From: a virus
Lineage: Duplodnaviria > Heunggongvirae > Uroviricota > Caudoviricetes
Length of the DNA: 32,158 bases
Strand: one strand, 5' to 3'
IMG/VR virus record: IMGVR_UViG_2529292726_000025
Location: 1 to 32,158 of that record
The position numbers and the translations under genes were made by a program. A model generated the notes under the pieces. The model saw only the letters and a list, made by a program, of their open reading frames with translations. It did not search any database and was not told the origin of the DNA. How positions within the stretch are numbered: position 1 is the stretch's first letter; every line of letters begins with the position of its first letter. Shown piece after piece: positions 1,237-32,158 of this stretch.

Positions 1237-1237
1237 A

Positions 1238-1453: not shown

Positions 1454-1531
1454 CGCATCACCTCTGGCAGGCGCCAATGTTAGACTGAAATTGACGCCCG
1501 ATGTTGATTATTAATAATCAGCTATGAAGTT

Positions 1532-1753: not shown

Positions 1754-1928
1754 TATTATTTCCAGTGGTTCGTTTATTCCATCTTTCGAGTGCTTCTTTT
1801 TCACTTCCACCATAACCGGTTCGGGATTCGCATCCGTTACACTTCGCTCGGTAATATCCTGAAATGGCTTTCACCGTTACTGATGGACAACCACAAAATG
1901 GACATGGTTTAACATTGTCATATCTCAT
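1734..1928 (-). CDS. ralR: RalR/Lar-like restriction-alleviation protein and type I toxin candidate, 64 aa
   Basis: Sequence MRYDNVKPCPFCGCPSVTVKAISGYYRAKCNGCESRTGYGGSEKEALERWNKRT with a Cys4 zinc-ribbon-like pattern. Located directly downstream of recT as in Rac. Confidence 0.72.
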   Translation of the reverse strand: MRYDNVKPCPFCGCPSVTVKAISGYYRAKCNGCESRTGYGGSEKEALERWNKRTTGNNNGGVHV

Positions 1929-1984
1929 AATTTTTCTCATAAAAAATATTTCAAGTTGGCGGTGCATTACACCGCCAGGCTGAA

Positions 1985-2794: not shown

Positions 2795-5450
2795 TTGCAT
2801 ATTCCTTAGCCCAGCGGGGCAGTGATAATGTCTTAATAGCTGGCCATTCATCGGTATTCAGGCAGTCAGACAGGGTTCGCAGATTGCGGTGATATTCCTG
2901 TTGACCTGCCAGTTTTGCTTCTTCGCCCATCATGAAAATTTCAACCGGATAACGTCCGCATTCAATAGTTGTGCTGGCAACCAGAAAAACGAAAGTTGGC
3001 TGCACTCCAAACTGTGCTTCATAACCGTCACTGTAGAATGCATCCTGAACGTGATAGCGGTAGTCGTAATAAGCGGTTTTGAATCGTTGAATATCCGCCG
3101 TAGTTTTCACGTCCATGATCCAGTGAAATTCAGGGATAATTTTGTCCGGACGGCACCGACACAAAATTCCTGTTTCAGGATCTTCCCAGTAAATTGATGA
3201 TTCAGCGTGTCCGGCGCTTTCAACAAGCCATTGCCCCAGCGGCAAAGCCATAACGCTTTGATACATGAGTTCAATTTTCCGGCCTTCTTCCGCAGTGATA
3301 ACCGTTTTTCCTGTGCTTGCGCATTCCATCAGAAACGCTTTCTCTTCTTCTTTTCCGGCGTTTGTACGGCGGTTAAATTCAGGTGCTACGATAAAGCGGT
3401 TACTGAATTCTTCCGGTTCAAGTACCCGGCAGTGGAAAGCAGTTCCTAAATCGAGCGTTTTTGTCTTTGTGGTGTCCACGGGGGCATTTTTACGCCACAA
3501 ATATAGTGCCGGAGTATCAGCAATGTCATCGAGCTGAGACTTACTGATACCGGGACCCGCGTGGTAATTCTCATTCGAAATTCCGTAATAAATACCTGGC
3601 TCTATGTCTTCTACGATTACGGGATCTGCGACTTCGCCAGTTTCATCACTGCAATCGCGATGCGGATCGCTGCCAGCATTCTCATTGTGCGGATGTTCAG
3701 CGCCTTCCATTTCCTCCGGATCATTTTCCTTAGCTTCAACCTGACTCTCTTCATCGAATGTTTCCTGGTATGTTGCGTCGCCCATCACCGCACCACAGTC
3801 AGGGCAGTTATCCCCGCCAGTCTGGCCGCAGGCATTGCAGGCTATTTCCGGTTCCTGTTGCACTACTGGCTCAGGTTGATTCATATCTGGGCTGGTTTTT
3901 TCCGTTTCTGGCTGGTTCTGGTACACACAATCGCGAGTCTGGATCCCCTTTACCCATTTCGGATCGTTCGGGTCGCTAATTCCGTCAACAAATTCACCAC
4001 GTGATGCAGCAAGCAACTTATTGGCGTCAGGCTGGCTGATATTGGCTGCCTGCATAATTTTGTTTACTTCGTCAGCGGTAACTTTTACCGGCTCTGGTTG
4101 TGCGATCGTGTCAGATGCACCAGTATTTTGTTGTGAACCTGAGTACGTGCCGTTTTTACGTGCGAAGTATTCCTCTTTTGTGATTTCCGTAGCTCCCAGG
4201 GCCAGTGCTTTTTCCAGACCAGAAAGTTTGTTTGCGCGACCGTATTTTTCGCCGTCCTTATCGGTGAAAAGGAAGTAGAACGGTCCCTCACGCTCTACAG
4301 ATGGTTCGTCTTCCACTTCGCATTCGGTTTTTTCGTTGTCCGGCATTGCCGTTTCCACTGCATCAGTTTCTGGTACTGGTGACGGGAGAGTACCAGCTGT
4401 GCCCTGATTTGTTCCTTCGTCATCTTCAAACACGCCCTTGGTAGTCAGGTATTCAGTGATGTATTTGTTCAGTGCTACGGGATCTTTGTGAATGTCGATC
4501 GGACGCTCACGGACAAGGCCAAAAATAGTCTGACGGTCGTAGCGAACGGCATCGGGTTGTTTGCGCATTGATGCGGAAATGCGCTTCCAGTCTTCGCGAT
4601 CTTTGTCGATAACTTCATTTTTTGCCCAGCGATGGATGCTGCCGTCAATGTTTCCGGTATCAATATCGCCAGGCCAGAGAGCGTAGGCCAGTTCTTCATC
4701 CAGCGTTTTCCATGTCTGCTTGTATTCGCGACAAATGGCGGCAGTGACTGGGTTGATTTTTCCTGCTGAGTTTTCAGTGTTCTGTTGATTGACTCTGGCG
4801 CTGGCGAGATCAACAACAGACGTGTATTTTCCAGTCTCTTTGCGCTCTGCGTCCTGCCGTTTTTTCCAGTTACGTAATTCAGCCTGAATTTCGGGCCATT
4901 TGGCACCCGGATTACATTTGTGTTTAACCCATCCGATAGCGAACAGTTTGCGTTCCGGATACATAGCGTTAATTTCAGGCGTTTTCATCAGTGCTTCAAC
5001 GATATGCCCGTCAAAGGTAGCAACGTCTTCCTGCAGTAATTCCTGCGCGTCAATCGCCATATCAACGGTGATGTTTTCACATGTACCGAACTTAACCAGG
5101 ACCGCGTTCTGTACTTCAAGGGACAGCTTGTCAAAATTGACGTTCATCGGATCGGATTCTGGTTCGACCGGAATAAAGGAAGCGGATTCCTCATCCCAGC
5201 GGTTTTCCTGCATATATTCAGCATCCCAGGAATCGAGGGCAGGGCGGGGTATACCGGGTTTATCCTCGCAAACAAGAAATTTATAAGCGCAGTCCTGAGC
5301 AGCCGGATAATGTTCCAGGAATTGCCAGTGAAATTTTGCGCGGGCGCGACGTTCATCACCGGCTTCAATGGCAGTGGCTACAGCGACGGCACCTTCTTCC
5401 TTTATTGCCTGTTCGTCCGGAATGGCGGCGCAAATAAAGACTTTACTCAT
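2787..5450 (-). CDS. recE: RecE exodeoxyribonuclease VIII-like 5'-3' dsDNA exonuclease, 887 aa
   Basis: Very long ORF partnered with recT. The C-terminal two thirds match my recollection of RecE (...[30 protein letters not shown]...[23 protein letters not shown]...). The N-terminal region is acidic and divergent. Confidence 0.85.
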
Positions 5451-12119: not shown

Positions 12120-12410
12120 CCTGGCCGGAGGCATTCACAACGACAGGAATTGCAATGGCGGCAGCACTTGTTGTGTATTCGATTTGCCGCTGGGGATAAA
12201 AACGGTTTGCAGTGAAAGGGGAGTTAAGTAGAATTGCTGCGGGTGCTTGAGGCTATCTGCCTCAGGCATGAACACCAAAAGGCAGATAGAGAAAAGCCCC
12301 AGTTAACATTACGCGTCCTGCAAGACGCTTAACATTAATCTGAGGCCCAATCTATGTCTCACAAATGTAGGTTAGCCTCTTACGTGCCGAAAGGCAAGGA
12401 GAAGCAGGCT

Positions 12411-12566
12411 ATGAAGCAGCAAAAGGCGATGTTAATCGCCCTTATCGTCATCTGTTTAACCGTCATAGTGACGGCACTGGTAACGAGGAAAGACCTCTGC
12501 GAGGTACGAATCCGAACCGGCCAGACGGAGGTCGCTGTCTTCACAGCTTACGAACCTGAGGAGTAA
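12411..12566 (+). CDS. hok: Hok/Gef-family type I toxin (membrane peptide), 51 aa
   Basis: MKQQKAMLIALIVICLTVIVTALVTRKDLCEVRIRTGQTEVAVFTAYEPEE is a canonical Hok-family sequence with a single transmembrane helix. An in-frame upstream extension to 12354 exists. Confidence 0.8.
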   Translation: MKQQKAMLIALIVICLTVIVTALVTRKDLCEVRIRTGQTEVAVFTAYEPEE

Positions 12567-15263: not shown

Positions 15264-16018
15264 ATGGAAGAACAGCACGGTAATTACTTTATAAAACGAA
15301 TTCAGTTGATTGGAAGGGGTGCATTTGGCTTTGTTGAACACGTTAAGGTTTACAACCTCAACAAGGGTGAATGTGGGGATTATGCTAGAAAGGTGAAAAA
15401 CCAGAGCTTTTGGCGCAAATAGAGCAGTTTAGAAGGCGTTTTAAAAGGGAGGTCGTGTATCAATCACATTGCGTACATAGCAATATTGTTCCTATTTATT
15501 TGTGCGATTTGTTTGCCGAGAATCCATGGTTCATTATGGATAAAGCAGAATGTGATCTTGAGCACGAAATAACGAACAACCTTCTTACAACAGATCAAAA
15601 AATTTCAATAGTGAAAATGGTATTAGATGGTGTAGCTCACATCCATGCGAAAGGCTATTTACACAGAGATATAAAACCATTTAATGTCTTGCGATTTAGC
15701 GACGGAACATACAAGGTGTCTGATTTTGGTCTGGTAAAAGATACAAATCCCGAAGGGGATACCACTAAATTGACCGAGATCGGTACCCGTATGGGAAGTA
15801 CAAGATATATGGCTCCCGAGATTTTATATAATGCCGAGTATTCAGTTAAGACTGATGTTTATGCGGTGGGGCGGTTAATTGAGGACTTAAATTTAGATGA
15901 TAAAAAAATAAAGCCTATCATAGCGAAGTGTACCAGGATGGATAAAGATGATAGATATCAGACAATAGATGATGTGGCGTTTGATTTTGTGCATTCTTTT
16001 TTAAGGAGTGAGTCATGA
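15264..16018 (+). CDS. Hanks-type (eukaryotic-like) Ser/Thr protein kinase, interrupted by a -1 frameshift in an A5 run (15396-15400)
   Basis: Glycine loop IGRGAFGFV, beta-3 lysine YARKVK, catalytic loop HRDIKPFN, DFG (VSDFGL) and APE (YMAPEIL). The N-lobe fragment 15264-15422 and catalytic fragment 15410-16018 are in different frames. Confidence 0.8.
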
Positions 16019-16758
16019 TTCAGCTGATAGCGACTTCATCATTCTCGTATCCAAAAGAACCAGGTAGGGTCAACGAAGATTCATTGCTTCCTCCCAAAAT
16101 TGTAGGGGATGGCATCTTATTTGCCGTAGCTGATGGTGTAGGTTCATACACTGGTGCCAGTCAGGCTTCATCAATGGCAATTGCTGAACTTTCAGCATTG
16201 ACAAGCTTATCTTTTGACACAGTTCCGGATGTATTTGATGAAGTTAAGCGAAAGGTTATGTCGTTAGCTGATGTTAATGATGAGTTCGATAAAGCTGCTA
16301 CTACACTTACGTTTTGTTATGTTTGTGATAGCGGAATTATTATTGGTCATATTGGTGATTGTCGTTTGTATTGCATTGGAGAGAAGAAAGCATACCAATT
16401 GACGAAGGACGATACCAGGCATCAGATGCTAATTGATCAGAATATTTTTAAACCCAGAGATTTGAAGGATAAACCGGGCAAAAATATCTTAACGACGGCT
16501 ATAGCCTCAAATGTTGATATGGAATACGACTGTGATTTTATCACATGGAAAGATTTACCTAGTATTAACGGGGTATATCATCTGTGTATCATGTCTGATG
16601 GGGTTCATAACGTTTGGGAAAAACGCCCCAGATTTACATCAAATACGATGAGTAATAGTCAGAAGTTTTCTAATGGCATTTTGCGTCGTATAGAGAGAGC
16701 CGGACCTGATGATGACTTTTCTTTAGTAAGTATAATGGTGCGTGTGACGTCAGATTAG
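16015..16758 (+). CDS. PP2C-family (PPM) Ser/Thr protein phosphatase, 247 aa
   Basis: PPM motifs NEDS, FAVADGVGS, HIGDCRLY, MSDGV and PDDDFS. ATGA start/stop overlap with the kinase indicates translational coupling. Confidence 0.8.
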   Translation: MIQLIATSSFSYPKEPGRVNEDSLLPPKIVGDGILFAVADGVGSYTGASQASSMAIAELSALTSLSFDTVPDVFDEVKRKVMSLADVNDEFDKAATTLTFCYVCDSGIIIGHIGDCRLYCIGEKKAYQLTKDDTRHQMLIDQNIFKPRDLKDKPGKNILTTAIASNVDMEYDCDFITWKDLPSINGVYHLCIMSDGVHNVWEKRPRFTSNTMSNSQKFSNGILRRIERAGPDDDFSLVSIMVRVTSD

Positions 16759-16831
16759 TTGTATAAACTCAGTAGGGAATGCTAATTTCACATACAACAT
16801 AGTTAAAGAAAACTTAATTTTAATGTAAAAA

Positions 16832-16855
16832 GGCTGCCCTCAGGCGGTCTTTTTA
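16832..16855 (+). terminator. Intrinsic terminator after the kinase/phosphatase cassette
   Basis: ggctgcc-ctca-ggcggtc hairpin (with G-U pairs) followed by ttttt and preceded by an A-run. Confidence 0.5.
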
Positions 16856-16977
16856 TGCTCGAAAATTGATGCAGTACGTTAAACGCGCTGGTGGTTGCGA
16901 ATACCGGTCTTTCAGCTTGCTGGCTTTTTAGACAAGAGTTATTGGTATGTCACGTTAACCAGAAAAGGGAAAAAGAC

Positions 16978-17175
16978 ATGCTAAAACAGCAGGATATGAC
17001 CGAAACCGCCAGAGTGGTGTTTAATGAATTAAGCGTCACCGAACCGGCGACCGTCGGGGAAATTGCGCAGAATACTTACCTTTCACGCGAACGCTGCCAG
17101 TTAATCCTGACCCAGCTTGTTATGGCGGGTCTGGCAGATTATCAGTTCGGTTGTTACAGACGCCTTCCGCAGTGA
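16978..17175 (+). CDS. Small putative winged-helix DNA-binding protein, 65 aa
   Basis: ATG 16978 with upstream GGGAAAAAG. Sequence MLKQQDMTETARVVFNELSVTEPATVGEIAQNTYLSRERCQLIL. Lies upstream of the methyltransferase gene. Confidence 0.4.
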   Translation: MLKQQDMTETARVVFNELSVTEPATVGEIAQNTYLSRERCQLILTQLVMAGLADYQFGCYRRLPQ

Positions 17176-17325
17176 AGGCTTTTTAATTTGTGGTAATGGG
17201 CGGCTGGTGGGTGTTAGCGGCACCTGCCAGCCATCTGCTCATGCGTTGGGGTCACAAGCAAACCTCAGGCCCATCTGCTTTGCGCAAAAGCAGTATGAGC
17301 CTATCAGAGAAGTGCTTATTGATCT

Positions 17326-17820
17326 ATGACTAATACTGTAAAAATATCCAGTTGTGAGTTAATCAACGCTGATTGCCTGAAATTTATCCAGACCTTACCG
17401 GAAAACTCTGTCGATCTGATAGTCACAGACCCGCCATACTTTAAAGTGAAGCCCGAGGGCTGGGATAACCAGTGGGAGGGCGACGATGATTACCTGAAAT
17501 GGCTGGACCAGTGTCTGGCGCAGTTCTGGCGGGTACTGAAGCCTGCCGGAAGTCTTTACCTGTTCTGTGGTCATCGCCTGGCATCTGACACCGAAATCAT
17601 GATGCGTGAGCGCTTTAATGTGCTGAACCACATTATCTGGGCGAAGCCGTCCGGACGCTGGAACGGGTGCAATAAGGAAAGTCTGCGGGCGTATTTTCCG
17701 GCAACAGAGCGCATTCTGTTTGCAGAACATTATCGGCACCATTCAAACATCTCCCCAAGTCTACTAAAGTCTTTCAAAACCCCTTATAATCCGCGTATTA
17801 AAGCCCCGTTCGTCTTTTGA
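17326..17820 (+). pseudogene. DNA N6-adenine (or N4-cytosine) methyltransferase, DPPY-first type, 3'-truncated at about 17750
   Basis: N-terminal motif IV LIVTDPPYF and conserved core through ERILFAE. The C-terminal AdoMet-binding FxGxG region is absent; the last 20 or so codons are junk-like and span a 23-bp direct repeat. Confidence 0.65.
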
Positions 17821-17844
17821 CGTCTACTAAAGTCCCTCAAAATC
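17759..17844. repeat. Imperfect 23-bp direct repeat pair at the prophage/satellite junction (att or Int arm-site candidate)
   Basis: gtctactaaagtctttcaaaacc (17759-17781) and gtctactaaagtccctcaaaatc (17822-17844), 20 of 23 identical. Followed by gggggtac / gtaccccc inverted repeats before int. Confidence 0.5.
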
Positions 17845-17906
17845 TACGGTCAGATGGGGGTACTTATGGGGGTATTTACTGTTCGGTTTAGTGGAGGTAC
17901 CCCCAA

Positions 17907-19121
17907 GTGAAACTCAATGCCCGTCAAATAGACACAGCCAAGCCAAAAGAGAAGGCTTACAAGCTGGCCGATGGTGGCGGTTTGTATCTCTTGGTAAAAC
18001 CTAATGGAGGTAAATACTGGCGACTTAAATATCGTGTAGCTGGTAAAGAGAAGCTATTGGCACTAGGTGTTTATCCTGAGGTTACTCTAGCCGATGCTCG
18101 GGCAAAACGTGAAGATGCGAAAAGAGGTATCGCTGGTGGTATCGATCCGATGGAAGCGAAACGAGAGGAAAAGATTGCCCGGGAAACGCAGTTAAACAAC
18201 ACCTTCAAAGATATTGCCATTGAGTGGCACAGCAGCAAATTAAAAAAATGGTCTGCTGGTTATGCTTCAGACATCCTCGAAGCCTTCAACAAAGATGTGT
18301 TCCCTTACATTGGCAAAAAAACCATCGCCGAAATCAAACCACTTGAACTTCTGAATGTGCTGCGGCGCATCGAGGGGCGCGGTGCTACAGAAAAAGCCAA
18401 AAAAGTGAGGCAGCGGTGCGGGGAAGTTTTCCGCTATGCAATAGTCACTGGTCGCGCAGAGTATAACCCTGCACCAGACCTTACTAGCGCGATGCAAGGC
18501 CATGAATCTAATCATTACCCTTTCCTTACAGCCAAAGAATTACCTGATTTTTTCAAGGCATTGTCCAGTTACTCAGGAAGCGCATTGGTTGTTATGGCGG
18601 CTCGTCTACTGATTATCACAGGCTTGCGGACTGGCGAACTACGTGGCGCATTATGGGATGAAATTGATTTCAACAAGGCTCTCTGGGAGATACCCGCTTC
18701 ACGTATGAAAATGCGGCGGCCTCATATTGTGCCATTGTCTGAGCAGGCTCTTTCGCTTATTGGGAAGATTAGAGAAATAACAGGCAATTACCCTCTTATG
18801 TTTCCCGGGCGCAATGATCCAAGGAAAACAATGAGCGAGGCCAGCATAAACCAAGTGTTTAAGCGCATTGGCTACGCTGGACGTGTAACTGGTCATGGGT
18901 TCCGGCACACTATGAGTACGATTTTGCATGAGCAGGGCTATAACACCGCGTGGATAGAAACGCAGCTCGCTCACGTTGATAAGAACTCAATTCGTGGCAC
19001 ATACAACCATGCGCAATATCTGGATGGAAGGCGGGAGATGCTTCAATGGTATGCCGACTATATGGATTCTCTCGAGCATAGCGGAAATGTGGTGCATATG
19101 GTGTTTGAAAAACACGCATGA
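17907..19121 (+). CDS. P4-type tyrosine integrase, 404 aa
   Basis: GTG start after a GGAGG Shine-Dalgarno. P4-like N-terminus (KAYKLADGGGLYLLVKPNGGKYWRLKYR) and catalytic R..HxxR..Y (RTGELRGALWDEIDF; HGFRHTMST; RGTYNHAQY). Confidence 0.9.
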   Translation: MKLNARQIDTAKPKEKAYKLADGGGLYLLVKPNGGKYWRLKYRVAGKEKLLALGVYPEVTLADARAKREDAKRGIAGGIDPMEAKREEKIARETQLNNTFKDIAIEWHSSKLKKWSAGYASDILEAFNKDVFPYIGKKTIAEIKPLELLNVLRRIEGRGATEKAKKVRQRCGEVFRYAIVTGRAEYNPAPDLTSAMQGHESNHYPFLTAKELPDFFKALSSYSGSALVVMAARLLIITGLRTGELRGALWDEIDFNKALWEIPASRMKMRRPHIVPLSEQALSLIGKIREITGNYPLMFPGRNDPRKTMSEASINQVFKRIGYAGRVTGHGFRHTMSTILHEQGYNTAWIETQLAHVDKNSIRGTYNHAQYLDGRREMLQWYADYMDSLEHSGNVVHMVFEKHA

Positions 19122-19772
19122 AACAACTGGACAAGTATACAGAGGTTTACTAAAGTATAGGGGAGTAGATTGATAAAAACTCACAGAGGATTACTATTTA
19201 ACAGTTAGCCCTGGAGAAGGGCAATCGCTCTTTTAACAACGAAGATGGAATCTTCTACGCAGCTGAAAAGCTGGATGCTCTTTAACAGCCTTTGGTGCTT
19301 TCCTGATGCAGGAAAGAATAGGGATACATGCACCTTTACAATGCATGTAATGATTCATCCATGAGGCTGCGGATCGCTGACAAAGCGCAATTGCTCTTTA
19401 ACATTGATGTGGGCGGGATGGTTCGTCCCGCAGTGACCGATAGATTTCTATCGGGAAACATACAATGATTCAAATATGAATCTACGGCGCTGACAAAGCG
19501 CAATTGCTCTCTTGCCTGCCCACCATGCCCTGAAAAAGGGCGTTCTTTAAAACTACTGGATGTCACGCCTAATAGCGTGATCCTGCCGAAATGCAGGGTA
19601 GCTCTACCCTTGTGGAGCAAACAAACCAAAACAATCTGACTATCTTTTATAAAAGACCGCAATATGTTTTTCATATTGTGGTCTTTGGCGTATTCGACAT
19701 TTGATGCAAATAAAACTCTCGCCATTCGTTGCAGGAGGGAGTTATTGCGTCATTAGTACAGGATATTAATAA

Positions 19773-19976
19773 ATGGCTAATTACAATTCATTAATTCGTC
19801 TCTCTGAAGTTCAAAGGCGAACTGGTTATAGCAAAGCATGGATTTATCGTCTTATTAGTCAGGGGAGGTTCCCTAAACAGGTAAAAATTGGAAGTCGGGC
19901 AATTGCTTTTGTTGAGTCTGAAATAGATGAATGGATTGAGAAGTGTATATTAGAATCTAGAGACGAGGTGGCCTGA
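19773..19976 (+). CDS. alpA: AlpA-family transcriptional regulator / excisionase-like protein, 67 aa
   Basis: LIRLSEVQRRTGYSKAWIYRLISQGRFPKQVKIGSRAIAFVESEIDEWI is a typical AlpA/Xis MerR-like HTH. Downstream of a P4-type int. Confidence 0.8.
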   Translation: MANYNSLIRLSEVQRRTGYSKAWIYRLISQGRFPKQVKIGSRAIAFVESEIDEWIEKCILESRDEVA

Positions 19977-20419: not shown

Positions 20420-21253
20420 ATGAACATCGAAAAAAGCAGATTAATTTCTGAGGCCGCCCCTCATCTGAACGCCTCTCTGGGCACAATTAACGGTAATGAA
20501 TTTGCCGCAATTGTCCCGGTTATTCCTGGTCATATCGGTGGGCGTGAAACCAATATTGTTAGCGCAAAAGCGTTACACAAAGCGTTGGGCGTGGGAAAAG
20601 ACTTCTCTACATGGATCACTGATCGCATCTCTGAATATGACTTCACCATTGGGCACGATTACTCAGTCCATAAAACAATTTCCCCAAATTTGGGGAAAAG
20701 CCCGAATGGCGCGGCTTACAGCAAGATTAAGCAGTCTGGCAGACCCGGCAAAGACTATCTGTTAAGTGTCGGAATGGCGAAAGAACTGGCAATGATCGAA
20801 CGCAATGATCAGGGTCGCGCTATCCGCCGTTATTTCATCCAGTGCGAGGAAGAATTACAGCGTAGCGTGCCTGAAATCGCCGCCCGCTATCGTCGCCAGC
20901 TAAAAGCCCGTATCAGTGCCGCAAACAACTTTAAGCCAATGTGCGATGCGCTGAATATGGCCCGTGCCGAGATGGGTAAAACGACGCAGCAACACCACTA
21001 CACAAACGAGAGCAATATGATTTCTCGTATCGTTCTTGGTGGGCTAACTGCTAAGCAGTGGGCGCGGATAAATGGCTATTCTGGCGAACCTCGCGACCAT
21101 ATGAACGCAGAACAGCTTGAGCACCTCTCATATCTCGAAAGCACCAATATCACGTTAATTGATATGGGCATGGAATATGAGCAGCGCAAAGGAGAACTCA
21201 CCCGCCTGTCGCAACGCTGGCTCGCCAAGCGTCTGGAGGTGGTCAATGTCTAA
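20420..21253 (+). CDS. Phage antirepressor-like regulatory protein (Rha/KilAC-type, tentative), 277 aa
   Basis: Size, position and general composition suggest an antirepressor-family regulator (...SAKALHKALGVGKDFSTWITDRI...). Not verified by motif. Confidence 0.4.
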   Translation: MNIEKSRLISEAAPHLNASLGTINGNEFAAIVPVIPGHIGGRETNIVSAKALHKALGVGKDFSTWITDRISEYDFTIGHDYSVHKTISPNLGKSPNGAAYSKIKQSGRPGKDYLLSVGMAKELAMIERNDQGRAIRRYFIQCEEELQRSVPEIAARYRRQLKARISAANNFKPMCDALNMARAEMGKTTQQHHYTNESNMISRIVLGGLTAKQWARINGYSGEPRDHMNAEQLEHLSYLESTNITLIDMGMEYEQRKGELTRLSQRWLAKRLEVVNV

Positions 21254-21428
21254 GCCAACAGGAACACCACAACCACAAAAACGCTACAAAGATGCCCACG
21301 GAGCACTCGTTACTGTCGAAAGCGTGTCTCACAACCGAGTGACGTTTTATCGCGACGGGTATCAATCGCCATGCGTACAACCGCTGGCGCGTTTCATGAA
21401 GGAGTTCGCGGAGGTTAACAAATGCTAA
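21246..21428 (+). CDS. Hypothetical small protein, 60 aa
   Basis: Start overlaps the stop of the upstream gene; part of a tightly packed operon. Confidence 0.35.
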   Translation: MSKPTGTPQPQKRYKDAHGALVTVESVSHNRVTFYRDGYQSPCVQPLARFMKEFAEVNKC

Positions 21429-22288
21429 CCGTCCAGAAGAAGACATTTTCACTGGCTGGTATGTCGCCAAAATCCAGCAATATGACGGCAAAGTCAGGCA
21501 TTAATACAGCAGATGCAAGCAAAGTTTATCATTTGCTGGTGGTCGGAACGGATGCCTTAACCATATCAGAAATCTCGGGCGATGATATTAGCATTGAGAA
21601 GGTCAGCGGCTGCGCCAGAAAATTTCTGGTCGTAGATGATGTCTTCCGCTCGTGTAGTGACTCCACAAAAACATTCGTCCACGCGCGTGACGTTAACGAA
21701 ATGAGCGCGATGTACTGTGCATCTGGTGCTTCCAATAGCGAGTTTTCGGAGTCCATAAAAAAGAGCTTGCCGTTATGCGGCAACACGGTTTATGGTTATA
21801 AGGCACCTCATAAAACGGGTGCCGGGATTGGCGTCCTGGTAAATCGAATGGCGACATATGACGCGCCGAGCGTCTTTTTTTATGTCGTAGGTCTGACTCA
21901 CCCATTTTTTGGGCGTTGGTGTATAATCCAGCGCCTTTGTCAATCAATGGTGGCTCAGGCAGGGGCTTCTTCGGAAGCGCCGGTATCCATTCGAGCCGGT
22001 TACGCCAACCCTGTCTGGGCTACCACCAGCGAAATTGGCGTTTCCGGTGGTAGCGTTACATGCTATCGAATGGAGGCTGCCACATGCTGGCTACTACCCC
22101 TACCCAAAAACCGCAATTTATCTGGATTATCGCCGCAGTTCGCCGCAGTTCGCCGCGATTGCCCGACAATTACCGCCAAAATTCATCATATTGCTGCCGA
22201 GTCTGAACGCGATGCTCGCCGTTCTCTGGTGCGCGATCACGTCTGCTTTTTTGCTGGTCGTATCCGCATGGAGGTGGCACATGATTAA
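21422..22288 (+). CDS. Hypothetical satellite-element protein, 288 aa, containing a tandem DNA repeat
   Basis: Long ORF in the operon. Contains the 10-bp tandem duplication cgccgcagtt at 22133-22160. Confidence 0.4.
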
Positions 22289-23771: not shown

Positions 23772-26528
23772 ATGCGAAACATTGATCTTATCCGTCAGGT
23801 TATCAGTGCGTCTGAAAACAACTGGCCTCATGTGCTGGGCTGTCTGAACATAAATGTCCCTGACTCTCCTCGCCGTCATGCTCCCTGCCCTGCATGTGGG
23901 GGCAAAGATCGATTCCGGTTCGACGACAACGGGCGCGGTAGCTTCATCTGTAATCAGTGCGGCGCTGGTGATGGGCTGGATTTAATTAAACGCGTAAATA
24001 ACTGCGACACAACAGAGGCGGCGCTTCTTGCCGCTGATGTTCTGGGTATTGATTACCGGACAACGGAAACACCAGAAGCCACCAGCCAGAAACGGGAACA
24101 ACTGGAAACCGAGCGCCAGCGACGCGAACAGGAGCGCCTGAAAAGGGCAGAGAAGGACGAACAACAAAGACGGGATACGTTTTCCCGTCAGTTTGATGAC
24201 ATGCGCAGAAAGGCTGTAAACGGCAAATCTGATTATCTGGTTGCGAAAGGGGTAGGTGATTTTACATTCCCAGTGTTGCCCGATGGATCTCTGTTGCTGG
24301 CGCTGGTGGATAAATCCGGCGCAGTCACAGCAGCACAGACTATTACCTCACATGGTGAAAAAAGACTCCTGACAGGTTCAGCAAAGCGAGGGGCATATCA
24401 CGCCATAAACGCACCAGAAACAACACAGAGCATCTTAATCGCAGAAGGGCTGGCAACGGCATTATCTGCCCATTTAATTCGTCCAGAATCGCTGACAGTG
24501 GCGGCGATTGATGCCGGGAACCTGTTATATGTCGCCCAGGTACTGCGGGATAAATTTCCTTCAGCACAAATCATCATTGCTGCGGATAACGACCACAGCG
24601 AAGGAAGACAAAACACGGGGAGAATAGCAGCAGAAAAAGCAGCTTTATCTGTTTCTGGATGGGTGGCATTACCCCCGACAGATCACAAAGCAGACTGGAA
24701 TGATTACCACCAAAAACACGGCATTAAATGCGCCACAGAAGCGTTCAATAAGTCAATGTACCAACCACAGGGTAATGGCGTGAAACAGCAGCCACAGACC
24801 ATTGAGGGAAGCGATTTTAAGGTTATGGATACCGACCCACTGAAACCAAGAATAGAAAGCCGCGAGGATGGTATTTATTGGGTATCTCCGAGAGCTGACA
24901 GCCAGAGTGGAGAAATCATCAATAACGAAAGCTGGTTATGTTCTCCGTTAAGCGTTATCGGTACTGGCAGAGACGATAAAGACCAGTATCTCATTCTTCG
25001 CTGGCTGTCGTTTGGTTCTGAAACGCCGACAACCGCTGCCATTCCACTGGCTGATATTGGTGAACGTGAAGGATGGCGCACACTTAAAGCTGGTGGGGTA
25101 AATGTCACGACCAAAAGCAGCCTCAGAGCAATACTGGCAGACTGGCTACAACGCAGTGGCTCTCGTGAATTGTGGCGTGTTGCTCATGCCACTGGCTGGC
25201 AATGCGGAGCGTACATCATGCCTGATGGGGAAATCATCGGAACACCTGAAAATCCTGTGCTGTTCAGCGGGAGAAGCTCAGCCGCAGCCGGATATACCGT
25301 CTCAGGGAGCGCGAAAAGCTGGCGTGATAACGTGGCGCGTCTGGCCTTTGGTAACTATTCAATGATGACCGGGATCGGCGCAGCACTGGCAGCGCCATTG
25401 ATTGGGCTGGTGGGCGCTGACGGGTTCGGCATTCATTTCTATGAGCAGTCGAGCGCAGGTAAGACCACCACGGCAAACGTGGCGAGCAGCTTATACGGCA
25501 ACCCTGATTTACTGCGGCTGACGTGGTACGGAACCGCGCTGGGGCTGGCAAATGAAGCCGCCGCCCACAATGACGGACTAATGCCGCTTGATGAAGTTGG
25601 TCAGGGCGCTGATCCTGTCAGTGTTTCACAGTCTGCCTATGCGTTATTTAACGGTGTAGGGAAACTGCAAGGCGCTAAAGATGGTGGAAACCGGGATCTA
25701 AAACGCTGGCGTACAGTGGCAATCAGCACTGGAGAAATGGATTTAGAAACATTTATCGCTACTTCCGGGCGAAAAACCAAAGCCGGGCAACTGGTGCGAC
25801 TGCTGAATATTCCGTTGAGTAAAGCAGTACGCTTTCACGATTACCAGAACGGAAAACAGCACGCAGACGCACTGAAAGACGCTTACCAGCATCACCACGG
25901 CGCAGCCGGGCGTGAGTGGATTAAATGGCTGGCAGACCACCAGCAACAGGCTATTAAAACTGTTCGTGACTGCGAAAGCAGATGGAGAAGCCTGATTCCA
26001 TCCGATTATGGTGAGCAGGTTCACCGTGTAGCCGCGCGATTTGCCATTCTGGAGGCCGCATTGCTGTTAGGCGAGGTTGTAACAGGCTGGGATGCTCAGA
26101 CATGCCGTGATGCGATACAGCACAGCTATAACGCATGGTTGCGCGAGTTCGGCACAGGTAACAAAGAACATCAGCAGATTATTGAACAAACGGAGGCATT
26201 TCTTAATGCCTATGGGCTTAGCCGTTTTGCACCATTTCCATACAGCCCGGCAGATTTGCCAATCAAAGATTTAGCCGGATACCGTCAGCGTGGAGAACAT
26301 GACGAAAGCCCAATGATTTTCTACACATTCCCGGCCACATTTGAAAAGGAGATCGCATGTGGTTTCAACGCAAAACAGTTTGCTGAAGTGTTGAAAAAAG
26401 CCGGGATGCTAACCCCACCAAACAGCGGTCGTGGATACCAAAGAAAATCACCACGTATTCAGGGACGACAAATAAACGTTTATGTACTCAATTACCAGCC
26501 AGGAGATTACAACTCATCTGAAGAATGA
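23772..26528 (+). CDS. Satellite-phage primase / replicase (P4 alpha-like), 918 aa
   Basis: N-terminal zinc-binding primase motif (CPACGGKDRFRFDD...FICNQCG). Large multi-domain protein. Iteron origin lies immediately downstream, as with P4 alpha and ori. Confidence 0.8.
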   Translation: MRNIDLIRQVISASENNWPHVLGCLNINVPDSPRRHAPCPACGGKDRFRFDDNGRGSFICNQCGAGDGLDLIKRVNNCDTTEAALLAADVLGIDYRTTETPEATSQKREQLETERQRREQERLKRAEKDEQQRRDTFSRQFDDMRRKAVNGKSDYLVAKGVGDFTFPVLPDGSLLLALVDKSGAVTAAQTITSHGEKRLLTGSAKRGAYHAINAPETTQSILIAEGLATALSAHLIRPESLTVAAIDAGNLLYVAQVLRDKFPSAQIIIAADNDHSEGRQNTGRIAAEKAALSVSGWVALPPTDHKADWNDYHQKHGIKCATEAFNKSMYQPQGNGVKQQPQTIEGSDFKVMDTDPLKPRIESREDGIYWVSPRADSQSGEIINNESWLCSPLSVIGTGRDDKDQYLILRWLSFGSETPTTAAIPLADIGEREGWRTLKAGGVNVTTKSSLRAILADWLQRSGSRELWRVAHATGWQCGAYIMPDGEIIGTPENPVLFSGRSSAAAGYTVSGSAKSWRDNVARLAFGNYSMMTGIGAALAAPLIGLVGADGFGIHFYEQSSAGKTTTANVASSLYGNPDLLRLTWYGTALGLANEAAAHNDGLMPLDEVGQGADPVSVSQSAYALFNGVGKLQGAKDGGNRDLKRWRTVAISTGEMDLETFIATSGRKTKAGQLVRLLNIPLSKAVRFHDYQNGKQHADALKDAYQHHHGAAGREWIKWLADHQQQAIKTVRDCESRWRSLIPSDYGEQVHRVAARFAILEAALLLGEVVTGWDAQTCRDAIQHSYNAWLREFGTGNKEHQQIIEQTEAFLNAYGLSRFAPFPYSPADLPIKDLAGYRQRGEHDESPMIFYTFPATFEKEIACGFNAKQFAEVLKKAGMLTPPNSGRGYQRKSPRIQGRQINVYVLNYQPGDYNSSEE

Positions 26529-27112: not shown

Positions 27113-27286
27113 ATGGCTATTTCAGTAAAGCCAGTATTGATAAGTGAGAAGCAAATGGAAGCGATAAAGAAAATTCAGGAGGAGCAGCGTAAAAAATCAG
27201 AGGTAGGAGTTGCGCCAACGATCCACGAAATTGCTCGGGGATTAATGGATAAGGCGCTGGCTTACACTTTAACTGGACGTGGGTAA
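27113..27286 (+). CDS. Small putative ribbon-helix-helix-like DNA-binding protein, 57 aa (below the ORF-track cutoff)
   Basis: Manual translation: MAISVKPVLISEKQMEAIKKIQEEQRKKSEVGVAPTIHEIARGLMDKALAYTLTGRG. Shine-Dalgarno AAGGGGG 5 nt upstream. First gene after the terminator and an AT-rich promoter-like region. Confidence 0.45.
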   Translation: MAISVKPVLISEKQMEAIKKIQEEQRKKSEVGVAPTIHEIARGLMDKALAYTLTGRG

Positions 27287-27290
27287 ATCA

Positions 27291-28757
27291 ATGGCTACGT
27301 GGCAACAGGGTATTAATTCTGGTGGTTTTCTGGCTGGCATCGGTACGCAAAATGAGAATGCGCCAAAGGCAAGCGACATTAACGCAACGCTTGGTCTGAT
27401 CCGCGAAAACAATGAACTGGCTCGCTCAGGTGCAAATAACGTTGGTCTGACCGCGTTACGTGGTCTGGCTGGAGTTGCTGATATTTATAAGCAGCAGCAA
27501 CAGCAGGAGCGTAAAGCGGCATTCCAGAAAGGTTATGCAGATGCTTATGCGTCCGGCGACAGGGAGCAGATGCGTAATCTTATTACAGCATTCCCAGAAG
27601 AGTTTGAGGAAGTCCGTAAAGGGATGAGTTATGTCGATGATGCTCAAAGGGATGATTATGGCAATCTGGCGCTCAAAGCACAGGTAGCCTCATCGCTTGG
27701 TCCGGGCGCATTTGGCAGGTTCATGATGGATAATGAGCAGGAGATGCGTCGTTTAGGTATCCCTCCAGAAACTATTGCTGAAATGCAGGTTAATGACCCG
27801 CAGGGCTTCCAGCATTTCGCAGGTAATCTGGCGCTGTTTTCTCTCGGTCATGAGAAGTATTTCGATATCAAAGATCAAATGGAAGGTCGGGATATTGAGC
27901 GCGGCGAGTTGGCAGAGACAATCCGCAGCAATCAGGCTGGCGAAGCACTTCAGGCGAGAGGGCAGGATATTAGCCGAGCAAATGCGTTAACGTCAGCATA
28001 TGCACCAACAGCAGCAATGCAGAATTACAATCAGTACGCTCAAATGTTAAAGGCGGATCCAGAGGGGGCGGCGGCATTTGCGGCAGCGGCTGGAATTAAT
28101 ACAAACGCCAAAAAATTAATGAGTGTTAGGGAAAACGATGATGGCACTGTCACAAAATACTACACAGACGGAAGTGAAGAGCAGGGAAAACTAAACCAGC
28201 CAATATCTGGAGATGGGTTTCGTCCAATAGCTTTGCCAACAGCTCAAAAGATCATGGAAAAGTCGCCAGAAGGGGCTAAAAAAGCTGCTGGATTTGCATA
28301 CAGAGTTAGGGATGCTCTTGATTCAATGGATACACTGAAAGGCCAGATTAGCCCACAGCGAGTGGCGATCATTAATAATGCTTTGGGTAATGGGACGCTG
28401 GCTAACTTAACGCTCAGCCCAACAGAGCAGCAATACGTTGTTAATGCTAATGACGCAATAATGGCAATACTCCGTCAGGAAACAGGGGCAGCTATCGTAC
28501 CTGCTGAAATGTCAAAATATTATCAAATGTATTTCCCTCAGCCTGGTGATTCCACAAAAACCATTGATACCAAGCGCCGGAAGATGGAAAACCAGTTCAA
28601 TTCGCTGAAAGCTGCTTCTGGTCGAGCTTATGATGCTTTGCGGGTTATTTCAGCAGTTGACAGAGGAACTTCTTCTTCGTCGCAGACATTGCCGCAATCT
28701 GAGCAGGTATCACAGCCAGCAGCCAGCAGTAACTTTTCTTCACTATGGGGTGATTAA
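27291..28757 (+). CDS. Large Gln/Ala-rich, predicted alpha-helical protein of unknown function, about 488 aa
   Basis: Long ORF (the track gives GTG 27279; ATG 27291 is more likely). No Walker, nuclease or other catalytic motif seen. Coupled to the downstream gene by a TAATG overlap. Confidence 0.6.
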   Translation: MATWQQGINSGGFLAGIGTQNENAPKASDINATLGLIRENNELARSGANNVGLTALRGLAGVADIYKQQQQQERKAAFQKGYADAYASGDREQMRNLITAFPEEFEEVRKGMSYVDDAQRDDYGNLALKAQVASSLGPGAFGRFMMDNEQEMRRLGIPPETIAEMQVNDPQGFQHFAGNLALFSLGHEKYFDIKDQMEGRDIERGELAETIRSNQAGEALQARGQDISRANALTSAYAPTAAMQNYNQYAQMLKADPEGAAAFAAAAGINTNAKKLMSVRENDDGTVTKYYTDGSEEQGKLNQPISGDGFRPIALPTAQKIMEKSPEGAKKAAGFAYRVRDALDSMDTLKGQISPQRVAIINNALGNGTLANLTLSPTEQQYVVNANDAIMAILRQETGAAIVPAEMSKYYQMYFPQPGDSTKTIDTKRRKMENQFNSLKAASGRAYDALRVISAVDRGTSSSSQTLPQSEQVSQPAASSNFSSLWGD

Positions 28758-30862
28758 TGGCTAAAGCATGGAAAGATGTTATCGCCTCTCCACAGTATCA
28801 GGCGTTAGCACCAGAACAAAAAACGCAGGCTCAGGAGCAATACTTCAACGAAGTCGTTGCCCCGCAAGCCGGAGAAAGTGTAGAGCAGGCTAAGCAGGCT
28901 TTTTATGCTGCCTATCCACTACCATCAACGAATGAAATAGACCGAGCCCAATCAGCAACTCAAAATATTCAACATACATCATCTGATAATTCTCTTGCGT
29001 CAGGGTATGCAAAGTTAGCGACTCAGCAAAGAGAGGGGCTTGAACGTTCAGCAGAACAGGGAGCCAGTCTTGGGGCTGCGATGCGCGATGCTATAACAGG
29101 CGAAAGCCGAATGACTCCAGAGATGGAGAGACTGCAAAATGTCGACCTTGCCCCAGAGTTAACCTCACTCAGCATGGATGCTCTAAAAGCTCGATGGTCT
29201 CAACTTTTCGGCTCTGACGCATCTCAGGAAAAGATTCTTCAGAGCATGGGAGCGAAATTAAGGCAGGATGAGAAGGGTAACACTATCGTTTCCCTACCAT
29301 CCGGTGATTATGCTCTGAACAAGCCGGGTTTATCACCGCAAGACGTGGCATCGTTTCTGGCTAATGCGCTGGCGTTTACACCAGCGGGCAGGACCGGAAC
29401 GGTGCTGGGGGCCATAGGGAAATCAGCAGCTACAGATTTAGCACTACAGGGAGCCACCAGCCTCGCTGGTGGAGAAGATATTGATCCGTTACAAACGGTA
29501 ATCTCTGCTGGCATTGGCGGCATTGGTAAGGGTCTGGAGAATACAGTGAGTGCCGTTTCGAGGGCCGTTCGCGGTGATATGGCACCGGAAGCGAAAGCCG
29601 CTGTTGATTTTGCATCGGAAAGAACCCTACCGTTAATGACCAGTGACGTACTGAAAGATAAAAACACTGTGCAGAGTCTGGCCCAGAAAACAGGCGAAAA
29701 AATTCCTTTTTTTGGAACGGGTACGAACAGGCTGAATCAACAACAGGCTCGGGAAAATCTGGTCAGAACATATAACGATGGTCTGGGAGGCATTTCAGAT
29801 AAACAGCTTTATGAGTCTGCTACTAAAGGGCAGCAAAAATTCATTGAGGCCGCAGGTAAGCGATATAACCGCATAATTGACGCTATGGGGGATACCCCTG
29901 TCGACCTATCAAACACGGTAAAAGCTATCGACAATCAGATTGCCGTGTTAAGCCGCCCGGGCAAATCTCAGGATAGAGCCGCGGTAAAAGTCTTGCAGCA
30001 ATTTAAAGACGATATCACCAGCGGACCCAATGACCTGCGTCTGGCGAGAGAAAACAGAACTGACCTTCGAAAGCGGTTCATGAATTCAAACGAGACTGTT
30101 GATAAAGACACGCTCCAGAAAGCCAGCGATATTGTCTACAAGGCATATACGCTGGATATGAGAAGGGCAGTAGCCCAGAAACTGGGTTCAGAAGAAGCAG
30201 CCAATATGGCAAGGGTTGATCGCTCATGGTCTAAATTCAATGACATGATGGGAAGAACGCGCGTTCAAAAGGCAATAGCCAGCGGCAAGGCCACGCCTGA
30301 GGATGTAACAAAACTCGTGTTTAGCCAAAGCCCATCAGAACGTTCTCAGCTTTACAGGCTTCTGGATGACAATGGTAGGCAAAACGCACGAGCAGCCATA
30401 GTTCAGAATGCTGTAGATAAGGCGACTGATCCGTCTGGAAATATCAGTGTTGAGAAGTTTATTAATGCGTTACACCGGAACAGGAAGCAATCAGCAACTT
30501 TCTTTAAAGGCGTGCACGGAAAGGAACTGGACGGCATTATTAAATACCTCAACGATACCAGACAGGCGGCAAAGGTTGACGGTCAGAAATTAAACAGCCA
30601 GAAACTTTATGGCCTGCTGGTTGGTGGAGGCGCTATAAATGCGGCAGTTCTGGCGGGGATGCTGAAAACGGCTGCGTTTGTTGTTCCTGCTGCTGGTGCT
30701 TTAGGCGGAGCAGCGAAGGCATACGAAAGCCCTGTTATACGAAATGCCTTATTACGTCTGGCAAATACGCCAAAAGGTAGCACAGCATATGACAGAGCGA
30801 TCAGTACAGTCACACAATCACTGACCACAGCAGCACAAGCATCGCAAAAGGAAGCTCAATAA
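28757..30862 (+). CDS. Large unknown-function protein with C-terminal glycine-zipper-like hydrophobic segment, 701 aa
   Basis: Long ORF. C-terminal LYGLLVGGGAINAAVLAGMLKTAAFVVPAAGALGGAAKAY is membrane-helix or glycine-zipper-like. Otherwise helical and Q/A/K-rich without catalytic motifs. Confidence 0.6.
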   Translation: MAKAWKDVIASPQYQALAPEQKTQAQEQYFNEVVAPQAGESVEQAKQAFYAAYPLPSTNEIDRAQSATQNIQHTSSDNSLASGYAKLATQQREGLERSAEQGASLGAAMRDAITGESRMTPEMERLQNVDLAPELTSLSMDALKARWSQLFGSDASQEKILQSMGAKLRQDEKGNTIVSLPSGDYALNKPGLSPQDVASFLANALAFTPAGRTGTVLGAIGKSAATDLALQGATSLAGGEDIDPLQTVISAGIGGIGKGLENTVSAVSRAVRGDMAPEAKAAVDFASERTLPLMTSDVLKDKNTVQSLAQKTGEKIPFFGTGTNRLNQQQARENLVRTYNDGLGGISDKQLYESATKGQQKFIEAAGKRYNRIIDAMGDTPVDLSNTVKAIDNQIAVLSRPGKSQDRAAVKVLQQFKDDITSGPNDLRLARENRTDLRKRFMNSNETVDKDTLQKASDIVYKAYTLDMRRAVAQKLGSEEAANMARVDRSWSKFNDMMGRTRVQKAIASGKATPEDVTKLVFSQSPSERSQLYRLLDDNGRQNARAAIVQNAVDKATDPSGNISVEKFINALHRNRKQSATFFKGVHGKELDGIIKYLNDTRQAAKVDGQKLNSQKLYGLLVGGGAINAAVLAGMLKTAAFVVPAAGALGGAAKAYESPVIRNALLRLANTPKGSTAYDRAISTVTQSLTTAAQASQKEAQ

Positions 30863-31320: not shown

Positions 31321-31670
31321 ACCAACCCTCCCTTTAGCGTTGTTTAGAATGGCAATCATCATATATCCAAGACATGGCATTTGGTACATAGCTTGGGTCG
31401 GGATTTCAAATCCGCCCCCGTTGATGGGGTCGTTACAGTACGCGCATATCCGCTTTATGTGAAACAGGAAGATTTTTCTGATATCACTGCCACAGCAAAA
31501 CACCAATTTCGAGACAAGTACGCGCGCGAGGGGTATCAGTTGCAAAAAGTTTTGCAACTGCGTCCGACCAGTACGCACACAATGGGTAAGCGTAAACTGA
31601 CCGCCGTATGTAGCCATCAGACGAGAATTGGTAACTTAGACGCCCATCTGATATAGACGGACATCTAAGT

Positions 31671-32096
31671 ATGGAATTACAGGACTGGCGAAAAGAACCT
31701 CGTAAAAACTATTCGAATGAATTCAAACTTCGTATGGTGGAACTGGCATCACAACCTGGAGCTTGTGTTGCACAGATTGCACGTGAAAATGGCGTCAATG
31801 ATAATGTTATTTTCAAATGGCTCAGGCTCTGGCAGAACGAAGGGCGTGTTTCGCGGCGTCTTCCGGTAACGACCTCTTCTGACACTGGCGTTGAATTATT
31901 ACCTGTAGAAATAACGCCGGATGAGCAGAAAGAACCTGTGGCGGCCATTGCGCCGTCTTTATCCACTTCCACTCAGACCAGAGTCAGTGCCAGTTCCTGC
32001 AAGGTGGAATTCCGTCACGGTAACATGACGCTGGAAAATCCATCGCCAGAGCTGCTCACAGTGTTGATCCGTGAACTGACCGGGAGGGGAAGATGA
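31671..32096 (+). CDS. IS66-family accessory protein (orfA / TnpA-like), 141 aa
   Basis: N-terminal HTH-like region (YSNEFKLRMVELASQPGACVAQIARENGVNDNVIFKWLRLW) typical of IS66 orfA. Confidence 0.7.
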   Translation: MELQDWRKEPRKNYSNEFKLRMVELASQPGACVAQIARENGVNDNVIFKWLRLWQNEGRVSRRLPVTTSSDTGVELLPVEITPDEQKEPVAAIAPSLSTSTQTRVSASSCKVEFRHGNMTLENPSPELLTVLIRELTGRGR

Positions 32097-32158
32097 TCTC
32101 ACTCCCATCAGGTACCCGTATCTGGCTCGTTGCCGGCGTTACCGATATGCGTAAATCC
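32093..32158 (+). CDS. IS66-family orfB (TnpB-like), 5' fragment cut by the window end
   Basis: Begins MISLPSGTRIWLVAGVTDMRKS, the characteristic IS66 TnpB N-terminus. Confidence 0.65.
   Translation, partial: MISLPSGTRIWLVAGVTDMRKS

Follow-up and report, generated by a model that had tools for sequence, protein, structure and literature searches.

The DNA examined here is a virus record of 32,158 nucleotides (IMG/VR record IMGVR_UViG_2529292726_000025, positions 1 to 32,158), referred to in its full length as "the window", in which the DNA methyltransferase (methylase) gene of a Rac/lambda-like prophage breaks off upstream of a tyrosine integrase gene. The reading we prefer, and hold at a probability of roughly 85%, is that a thrW-targeting phage-inducible chromosomal island (PICI) of the EcCIMP1 family was inserted by its own integrase (Int) at a "pseudo-attB" inside the methylase gene. 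An island of about 18.4 kb, whose usual site is the 3' end of thrW, a tRNA gene, would have integrated at this secondary site, and strand exchange within the sequence ATTATC would have joined the 5' half of the methylase gene to the left end of the island, which starts with GGCACCA, creating the junction that we call attL' (17729-17741). What we see is an element of known type at an off-target site, a rare occurrence rather than a novel kind of system.

The interrupted gene and the two junctions

The features at the left junction are as follows.

17326-17734, plus strand: 5' fragment of the methylase gene, codons 1-136 and 1 nt, of the lambdoid-prophage beta-class N6_N4 (DPPY) type; identified by its Pfam match, by identity to the intact H10407 gene up to ATTATC, and by the annotation "missing C-terminus" in strain 510016
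17729-17734, plus strand: ATTATC, the block common to the methylase target, the thrW 3' region and the right end of the element, and the probable crossover region of attL'; from an alignment of the target, attL', attR' and the thrW attL and attR sites
17735-17741, plus strand: GGCACCA, the last 7 nt of thrW, the element's tRNA replacement sequence and the first element-derived DNA; from homology to the thrW copies, which starts at 17729, and from the published EcCIMP1 boundary, which falls at the same base
17735-17820, plus strand: foreign tail of the chimeric open reading frame (ORF), 28 codons (RHHSNISPSLLKSFKTPYNPRIKAPFVF) and a stop, contributed by non-coding DNA of the element; from translations

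The ORF at 17326-17820 encodes 164 amino acids and aligns with positions 1-106 of the 221 in the Pfam profile N6_N4_Mtase. An intact homologue in enterotoxigenic E. coli H10407 is 349 amino acids long, covers profile positions 1-219, and has DPPY near its N-terminus and the FxGxG motif for S-adenosylmethionine (AdoMet), DFFMGSGST, near its C-terminus. This permuted motif order, DPPY first and FxGxG last, marks the interrupted gene as a predicted beta-class DNA methyltransferase. The intact protein matches M.RsrI, CcrM and MboIIA in two separate stretches, of which the window ORF retains the first alone. An earlier sequence-only reading of the window had described a gene that keeps DPPY and the conserved core and has lost its AdoMet-binding region, which agrees with these results. 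It had also described the frame as junk-like from about 17750 and had placed the break at the first of two 23-bp direct repeats; both positions have to be revised. The alignment to intact prophage methyltransferases that the same reading proposed fixes the breakpoint at 17734/17735, where methylase-derived sequence stops with the end of ATTATC, and the first repeat begins 24 nt further on, within the inserted element. A naturally short methylase of about 164 residues sharing this C-terminus is ruled out, as full-length copies run across the junction in 1,865 genomes and the intact protein has 349 residues. The window product is probably an inactive chimera, having kept the DPPY half, lost the AdoMet motif and gained 28 codons of P'-arm DNA.

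Around the breakpoint the intact methylase gene, for example in H10407, reads GCAGAAC ATTATC AGGGACC GTATCGCCCG. Where the window has 17729-17741 (ATTATCGGCACCA), the final 13 nt of thrW, the intact gene has ATTATCAGGGACC, and it is this stretch that we take as the putative pseudo-attB. ARAGORN found no tRNA gene in the window; the contribution of thrW is limited to those 13 nt.

The source of the inserted DNA was identified by a megablast search of window positions 16800-19200 against 5,426 complete E. coli genomes. Only strain 510016 matched over the full length (99.8% identity). The other 29 matches listed all begin at window position 17729, with identities of 99.3-99.6%, and in 27 of these 29 the annotation beneath the match reads tRNA-Thr followed by integrase. 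Strains 21EVA and ECNB21-M121, two of the 30 matches listed, came without a tRNA annotation; they carry tandem arrays behind a 46-bp thrW 3' copy that ends another element, so that they are still at the thrW locus and are ruled out as insertions elsewhere. The arrays in these two strains (L016, L017 ~2395-2513) use two different att lengths. An island of about 18.4 kb, homologous to the window from 17729 on, is present at the thrW tRNA-Thr gene in hundreds of E. coli genomes. In M10, 21EVA, BKQ37E, H10407 and others it occupies the interval from thrW to the paoD side and has the same two ends (left GGCACCATTCAAAC..., right ...TTCCTATTATC).

Strain 510016 supplies the far end of the insertion. 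Its sequence is 99.9% identical to the window over window positions 3900-31585, and its gene order is the methylase 5' part, int, the island of about 18.4 kb, the junction ...GTGTATTGTTCCTATTATC / ACCGTATCGCCCG..., the rest of the methylase gene, tRNA genes for Ile, Thr and Gly, and the holin and endolysin genes. Because the far end of the island (...TTCCTATTATC) abuts the missing 3' half of the methylase gene, the event was an insertion and not a deletion. The ends of the element in 510016 equal those of the thrW-resident copies to the base, and the two methylase halves, one in the window and one in 510016, are identical to the intact 349-residue genes save for 4 nt at the junction. The earlier suggestion of a satellite-type element lodged in a prophage gene rather than at a tRNA is thereby upheld for this copy, the same element being found at thrW in hundreds of genomes and the missing methylase half at its far end in 510016. 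That suggestion had been tied to a matching repeat at the other end of the element and to an integrase distinct from that of the lambdoid prophage. ATTATC is found at the far end, and the prophage has an integrase of its own, so the int gene at 17907 is not the prophage's:

1-1236, minus strand: integrase of the host prophage, Arm-DNA-bind_2 type

Insertion at the prophage's own tRNA-Thr gene is also ruled out, as this gene lies about 850 bp past the junction in 510016 and has a different 3' end (GTAGTCGGCACCA).

The methylase junction occurs in one of the 5,426 complete genomes, and the exact junction 27-mer had no match in metagenome and viral contig collections. At least 10 contigs encode the exact 164-residue chimeric product; they come from several NCBI assemblies, a metagenome at ENA and a Logan run. 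Rarity is the only feature that would suit an assembly chimera of a prophage contig and an island contig, an explanation so improbable as to be negligible: the identical junction and chimeric ORF recur in a closed genome, several drafts, an ENA metagenome assembly and a Logan assembly, and the reciprocal junction is present in 510016. The junction is a real, vertically maintained trait of a lineage.

Target choice and the shortened right junction

The sequences that bear on the exchange can be compared directly.

Target, intact methylase: GAAC ATTATC AGGG ACC GTATCG
thrW attB: CTCCT ATTATC GGC ACC ATTAAAATC
attL' (window): GAAC ATTATC GGCACCA TTCAAAC
attR' (510016): TTCCT ATTATC ACC GTATCG

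The target matches the thrW core at all six positions of ATTATC and then again at GG.ACC with an offset of one base. A relaxed pattern that admits both sites, ATTATC-N(0-1)-GGNACC, should turn up about five times in a genome; the approximately 400 kb of fetched DNA contain it at the methylase site and at att junctions of the thrW type, among them the tRNA-Thr 3' copies of the tandem arrays, and nowhere else. Since the pattern is rare and confined to these places, the choice of site was not random. A crossover within ATTATC with an attP that carries GGCACCA reproduces attL' exactly. Two features expected of integration at a secondary site are present: the ends of the element (left GGCACCATTCAAAC, right TTCCTATTATC) do not differ from those at thrW, and the target resembles the primary core at the crossover.

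Several facts weigh against this account. A conservative reciprocal exchange loses no bases, whereas AGGG is gone at attR', which is 4 nt shorter than such an exchange predicts. Dividing the sequences differently, with an attP that lacks GGC and a crossover in CACC, fits attR' but requires the loss of one A at attL'. The right junction itself lies beyond the window, and its assignment to this DNA is drawn from the near-identity of 510016. Finally, tandem integration at an occupied thrW is common, so that a blocked primary site would explain the use of another one only weakly. A pre-existing methylase allele with one base deleted, which would have been a near-perfect pseudo-attB, was looked for as a candidate and occurs in none of the 5,426 genomes.

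The question of a blocked site arises because thrW in 510016 holds a decayed relative of the island (L005 17132-19731), consisting of int, alpA, one ORF and the start of antA, whose Int is identical at 402 of 404 residues. Deletions associated with IS1 and IS100, reaching through to rclC, took everything beyond antA, including attR. The 510016 genome thus has two related integrases, and its occupied thrW may have favoured the off-target event.

Loss of bases at attR is typical of the EcCIMP1 family at thrW. At thrW, about 450 genomes have an attR that reads ATTATC-GCACC, about 12 have ATTATC---ACC and only 2 have the complete form ATTATCGGCACC, while attL keeps an intact tRNA end in every copy inspected. 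The loss of 4 nt at attR' begins at exactly the point from which 1 or 3 nt are missing in the thrW attR copies. In strain MP1, too, attR lacks one base where EcCIMP1 meets the adjoining Vat island (record 3,565,708). In PICIs at Thr and other tRNA genes, deletions of the attR tRNA fragment vary in length and have a fixed start in the acceptor stem, and it has been suggested that the tRNA is debilitated upon PICI excision (Tommasini et al. 2023, PMC10111431); tRNA-fragment damage is not mentioned in Mageeney 2020.

The imperfect reciprocity of the junctions could also point to a route without integrase, in which a segment of a thrW::island chromosome was moved by illegitimate recombination at microhomologies (ATTATC on the left, ACC on the right). 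In its favour, attL' carries the tRNA-derived GGCACCA, and attR' (ATTATCACC) is exactly the attR of the M10-type thrW copies. We judge such a route highly improbable. GGCACCA, as tRNA replacement, would be expected in any attP of this family, both ends match the site-specific ends to the base, unlike the products of random breakage, and no flanking chromosomal DNA from thrW or the paoD side was co-transferred. Nor was the ACC form inherited from a donor clade: ATTATCACC was considered as a marker of one and ruled out, as the closest relatives, 21EVA and BKQ37E, carry ATTATCGCACC.

With insertion by the island's own integrase, the circular form would carry the attP sequence ...TTCCTATTATCGGCACCATTCAAAC..., and the empty site after excision would read GAACATTATCACCGTATCG, 4 nt short. 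Joining attL' and attR' over ATTATC is accordingly predicted to yield a methylase gene that lacks these 4 nt and is frameshifted.

Arm region, island and host prophage

The DNA between attL' and int contains a series of repeated motifs.

17742-17906, plus strand: P' arm of the element's att site and int upstream region; found beside thrW in 1,034 genomes, with blocks kept in relatives 75-87% identical
17759-17781, plus strand: copy 1 of the 23-bp direct repeat, GTCTACTAAAGTCTTTCAAAACC, with the conserved half GTCTACT.AAGT
17822-17844, plus strand: copy 2 of the 23-bp direct repeat, GTCTACTAAAGTCCCTCAAAATC, 63 bp from copy 1
17854-17877, plus strand: doubled motif ATGGGGGTACTT ATGGGGGTATTT (a tandem ATGGGGGTAYTT pair), candidate Int arm-type site
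17897-17905, minus strand: inverted copy of the GGGGGTAC motif over the ribosome-binding region and GTG start of int

The two 23-bp repeats are present as first described, identical at 20 of 23 positions by count (a repeat search gives 21 nt at 90%); we calculate that chance alone would give about 2e-3 such pairs in the window. Also as first described, inverted arms follow (GGGGGTAC at 17850-17863 and GTACCCCC at 17897-17910), and then the integrase, from 17907. The proposal that the repeats are att core remnants fails, since they are missing from the right end, present in every thrW copy and internal to the element. The att core is more plausibly ATTATC(GGCACCA), the mimic of the thrW 3' end. 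In relatives whose spacer between attL and int is 75-87% identical, the first half of the repeats (GTCTACT.AAGT) is kept and the second half drifts. Likewise kept are CTTATAATC and AAATCTAC, the doublet of GGGGGTA, and the inverted copy that covers the int start. The doubled GGGGGTA motif occurs on both arms in the same orientation, about 134 bp past the crossover and, at the far end, about 78 bp ahead of it (L001 39283-39306). GTCTACTAAAGTC is confined to the int-proximal arm, with a weaker third copy right behind int.

We propose that the 23-bp repeats, the GGGGGTA doublet and the inverted copy would together make up the P' arm and the int control region of the element. The GGGGGTA doublets rank as the better candidates for Int arm sites, because they lie on both arms with a geometry near that of the -81/+132 motif of helper-embedded PICIs (HE-PICIs). 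The 23-bp repeats (GTCTACTAAAGT) are most likely putative sites for a second factor, of the AlpA or recombination directionality factor (RDF) type, or P' arm sites of the KplE1 kind; a role as Int arm-type sites, as the sequence-only reading had it, is possible. A simple sigma-70 scan of the spacer (17742-17906) gave no promoter above background.

The genes of the island that fall within the window are these.

17907-19121, plus strand: tyrosine integrase, 404 residues, thrW specificity; Pfam Arm-DNA-bind_3, Phage_int_M and Phage_integrase, with about 99.5% nucleotide identity to copies beside tRNA-Thr
19773-19976, plus strand: alpA, AlpA-family regulator; Pfam Phage_AlpA, protein identical to the MP1 copy WP_000035054.1
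20420-22288, plus strand: Bro/immunity zone, with an AntA antirepressor (20420-21253) and an Ash-family protein (21422-22288)
23772-26528, plus strand: replication protein, 918 residues, with zinc ribbon, Toprim and DUF927 primase/helicase
27279-30862, plus strand: captured P22-type DNA ejection/injection proteins, 492 and 701 residues; Pfam Inj_translocase, PHROG 917 and 770
31586-32158, plus strand: IS66-family insertion sequence in the island, found in this strain only; homology to 510016 and M10 stops at 31585, HTH_Tnp_1 orfA at 31671-32096

The order of island genes is int, alpA, an ORF of 143 residues, the AntA antirepressor, the Ash-family protein with isrK and a C4 antisense RNA, small ORFs, the Toprim/DUF927 primase and the two P22-type ejection proteins; past the end of the window the island carries perC and a pRiA4b-ORF3 gene. 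The layout is that of a PICI, with int and then alpA at one end, co-oriented and adjoining the att site. So are the contents: the element has its own primase, its sole late-type genes are the two ejection proteins, and its length of about 18.4 kb in 510016 is within 10-20 kb. By these features the element can be assigned to the EcCIMP1 family of Gram-negative PICIs. Its integrase had been called P4-type, which is correct as a domain architecture but not as kinship: the best matches in the phage collection are those of Sf6, HK620, CUS-3 and Kapi1 (the IntS group), at 49% amino acid identity. The pair of ejection genes, which is unlike the set in EcCIMP1, suggests that late genes were captured from podovirus helpers and that the late zone undergoes modular exchange.

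Other observations on the island concern its RNAs and repeats. The isrK (21803-21880) and C4 antisense (21943-22030) RNAs, both above Rfam gathering scores, lie within or adjoining the ash gene, and the pair would represent a P1/P4-type RNA immunity module in a PICI. In the spacer between int and alpA (19209-19510) a 23-nt repeat, CGCTGACAAAGCGCAATTGCTCT, occurs three times, two of the copies being identical and one 74%; a palindrome overlaps them, and all of this lies inside a minus-strand ORF of 129 residues that is a RefSeq hypothetical; these repeats could be operators of the alpA promoter region. The IS66-family orfA is followed by the start of the next ORF of the insertion sequence, presumably tnpB.

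The surrounding prophage sits at ompW in 510016 and has lambda-type head and tail genes. RalA, the antitoxin small RNA of RalR (1557-1735), and a sok antitoxin RNA (12241-12416) mark it as Rac-like in the early region. In 510016 it is decaying, the gene for the large terminase subunit being split by ISEc10. Between the antiterminator gene Q and the methylase (15410-16758) are genes for a serine/threonine protein kinase and a PP2C phosphatase that overlap by 4 nt; they might form a phage-exclusion or signalling pair. Window positions 1-3900 (integrase, RalA region, RecT and the start of a RecE-like gene) are unrelated to 510016 or only 85% identical, against 99.9% in the remainder, which indicates mosaic exchange of the integration and recombination module between otherwise identical prophages.

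The position of the element admits another explanation, that it is a true HE-PICI, for which the methylase gene would be a regular, evolved site, the surrounding lambdoid prophage the helper, and excision a means of restoring the gene. The geometry is that of HE-PICIs: Q precedes the element, the genes for lysis and morphogenesis follow it, and int, alpA and the primase gene share a strand with prophage Q, methylase and lysis genes. The junction also persists in a lineage, on at least 10 contigs from several assemblies. We consider this very unlikely all the same, because hundreds of genomes have this integrase at thrW (99.5% nucleotide identity) while the methylase junction is found in one of 5,426 and in none of the metagenome and viral collections. 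The methylase gene is outside the 14 late-gene sites known for HE-PICIs, and the paper that describes them (PMC10111431) makes no mention of any methylase. The loss of 4 nt, moreover, means that excision would leave the gene frameshifted rather than restored. The P22-type ejection genes and the podovirus helper of a relative, Kapi1, also sit poorly with a lambda-like host prophage whose terminase gene is disrupted by an insertion sequence in 510016; a helper relationship between island and host prophage is doubtful.

A wider interpretation goes beyond off-target insertion by the island's integrase. The insertion might be a snapshot of how helper-embedded satellites originate, and the 4-nt loss might show that attR damage is made by the integration reaction, whatever the target, and not by selection on the tRNA fragment; we think this unlikely. 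If it were true, a tRNA-specific PICI would have landed, co-oriented, between Q and the lysis and head genes, and Q-modified late transcription could enter int-alpA, coupling excision to the induction of a type of helper that is not the usual one. Apart from this interpretation, the preferred reading implies that a tRNA-specific PICI integrase can use a look-alike site in a prophage, giving a nested satellite-in-prophage composite, and such composites are the sort of material out of which dedicated helper-embedded satellites could evolve. If the loss arises during integration, an example without a tRNA is an argument for regarding attR "damage" as inherent in the recombination, with one cleavage point directly after ATTATC. 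In either case, excision would leave the methylase permanently frameshifted. What is new is small in scale: an off-target, prophage-embedded insertion by a tRNA-specific PICI integrase, and a natural case suggesting that attR deletions need no tRNA target. In terms of annotation the result is ordinary, a methylase pseudogene created by the insertion of a known PICI family.

Comparison with known systems

The closest relative is EcCIMP1 of E. coli MP1, which resides in tRNA-Thr between proA and yagU, flanked by a TCCTATTATC core, needs the presence of the P22-like phage Kapi1, as well as int and alpA, for excision and circularisation, and is transduced by Kapi1 (Pick, Stadel and Raivio 2025, PMC11773190). 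Identity between the two islands is 97.9% over attL-int and 94.3% and 98.4% over alpA-primase. They have identical AlpA, PerC and pRiA4b-ORF3 proteins, the order int, alpA, antA, ash/icd, primase, P22-type ejection genes, and the same left (GGCACCA...) and right (...TCCTATTATC) boundaries, the published left edge being the start of the foreign DNA in the window. They differ in the late zone, which has two ejection genes here and DUF2824, an ejection protein and a transglycosylase in MP1; in length, about 18.4 kb against 19,963 bp; in site, a prophage methylase gene against thrW; and in the IS66-family insertion present here.

With HE-PICIs (Tommasini, Mageeney and Williams 2023, PMC10111431) the element shares its nesting within a gene of a lambdoid prophage, co-oriented with late transcription, and the doubled motif of attP, which lies at -81/+132 in HE-PICIs, where it is proposed to be an arm-type or AlpA site, and at about -78/+134 here. 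The motifs themselves differ (TGGGGGTA here, TGTATTGC there). The "damage" on the attR side is instead a likeness to the tRNA-targeting PICIs of the same study. The integrases of HE-PICIs form a dedicated clade and use sites that recur, 14 in number, within structural late genes, whereas the present case combines a thrW-specific integrase with a single use of a non-structural gene, and its excision, being 4 nt short, would not restore that gene.

Phage lambda is the paradigm for integration at secondary attachment sites. A secondary chromosomal attachment site has also been reported for Salmonella genomic island 1 (SGI1; PMC2297512), and the present case resembles both in the rarity of a site that partly matches the primary core and in the unchanged ends of the element. 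It differs in having its site within a second mobile element and in the 4 nt missing from the right junction.

What links the element to P4 is the Arm-DNA-bind_3 integrase architecture, alpA, the large primase, an antisense RNA of the C4/CI type and, as annotated in the near-identical copy of 510016, an icd-like gene. P4 integrates at leuX, and within the phage collection it is the IntS group that comes nearest to the integrase found here. No homologues of psu, sid or delta were found in Pfam and PHROG scans of the main ORFs and part of the small ones, or in the RefSeq annotation of the whole element; by these scans the element lacks the P4-like satellite core, in which psu, delta and sid (capsid-size hijacking) accompany alpha, int and alpA.

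The IntS module of KplE1/HK620 (Panis et al. 2010, PMC2951348) differs in its target, argW rather than thrW, and in its RDF, TorI rather than an AlpA-type protein. The integrase in the window is 49% identical to those of the Sf6/HK620 type, two of which are annotated "prointegrase IntS". The P' arm sites of KplE1 share TAAA, which also occurs in the 23-bp repeats here, and the KplE1 attL overlaps the int promoter (PMC2951348). In both systems the tRNA, attL and int have the same orientation with no gene between them, and because of this arrangement the upstream region of int lies inside attL.

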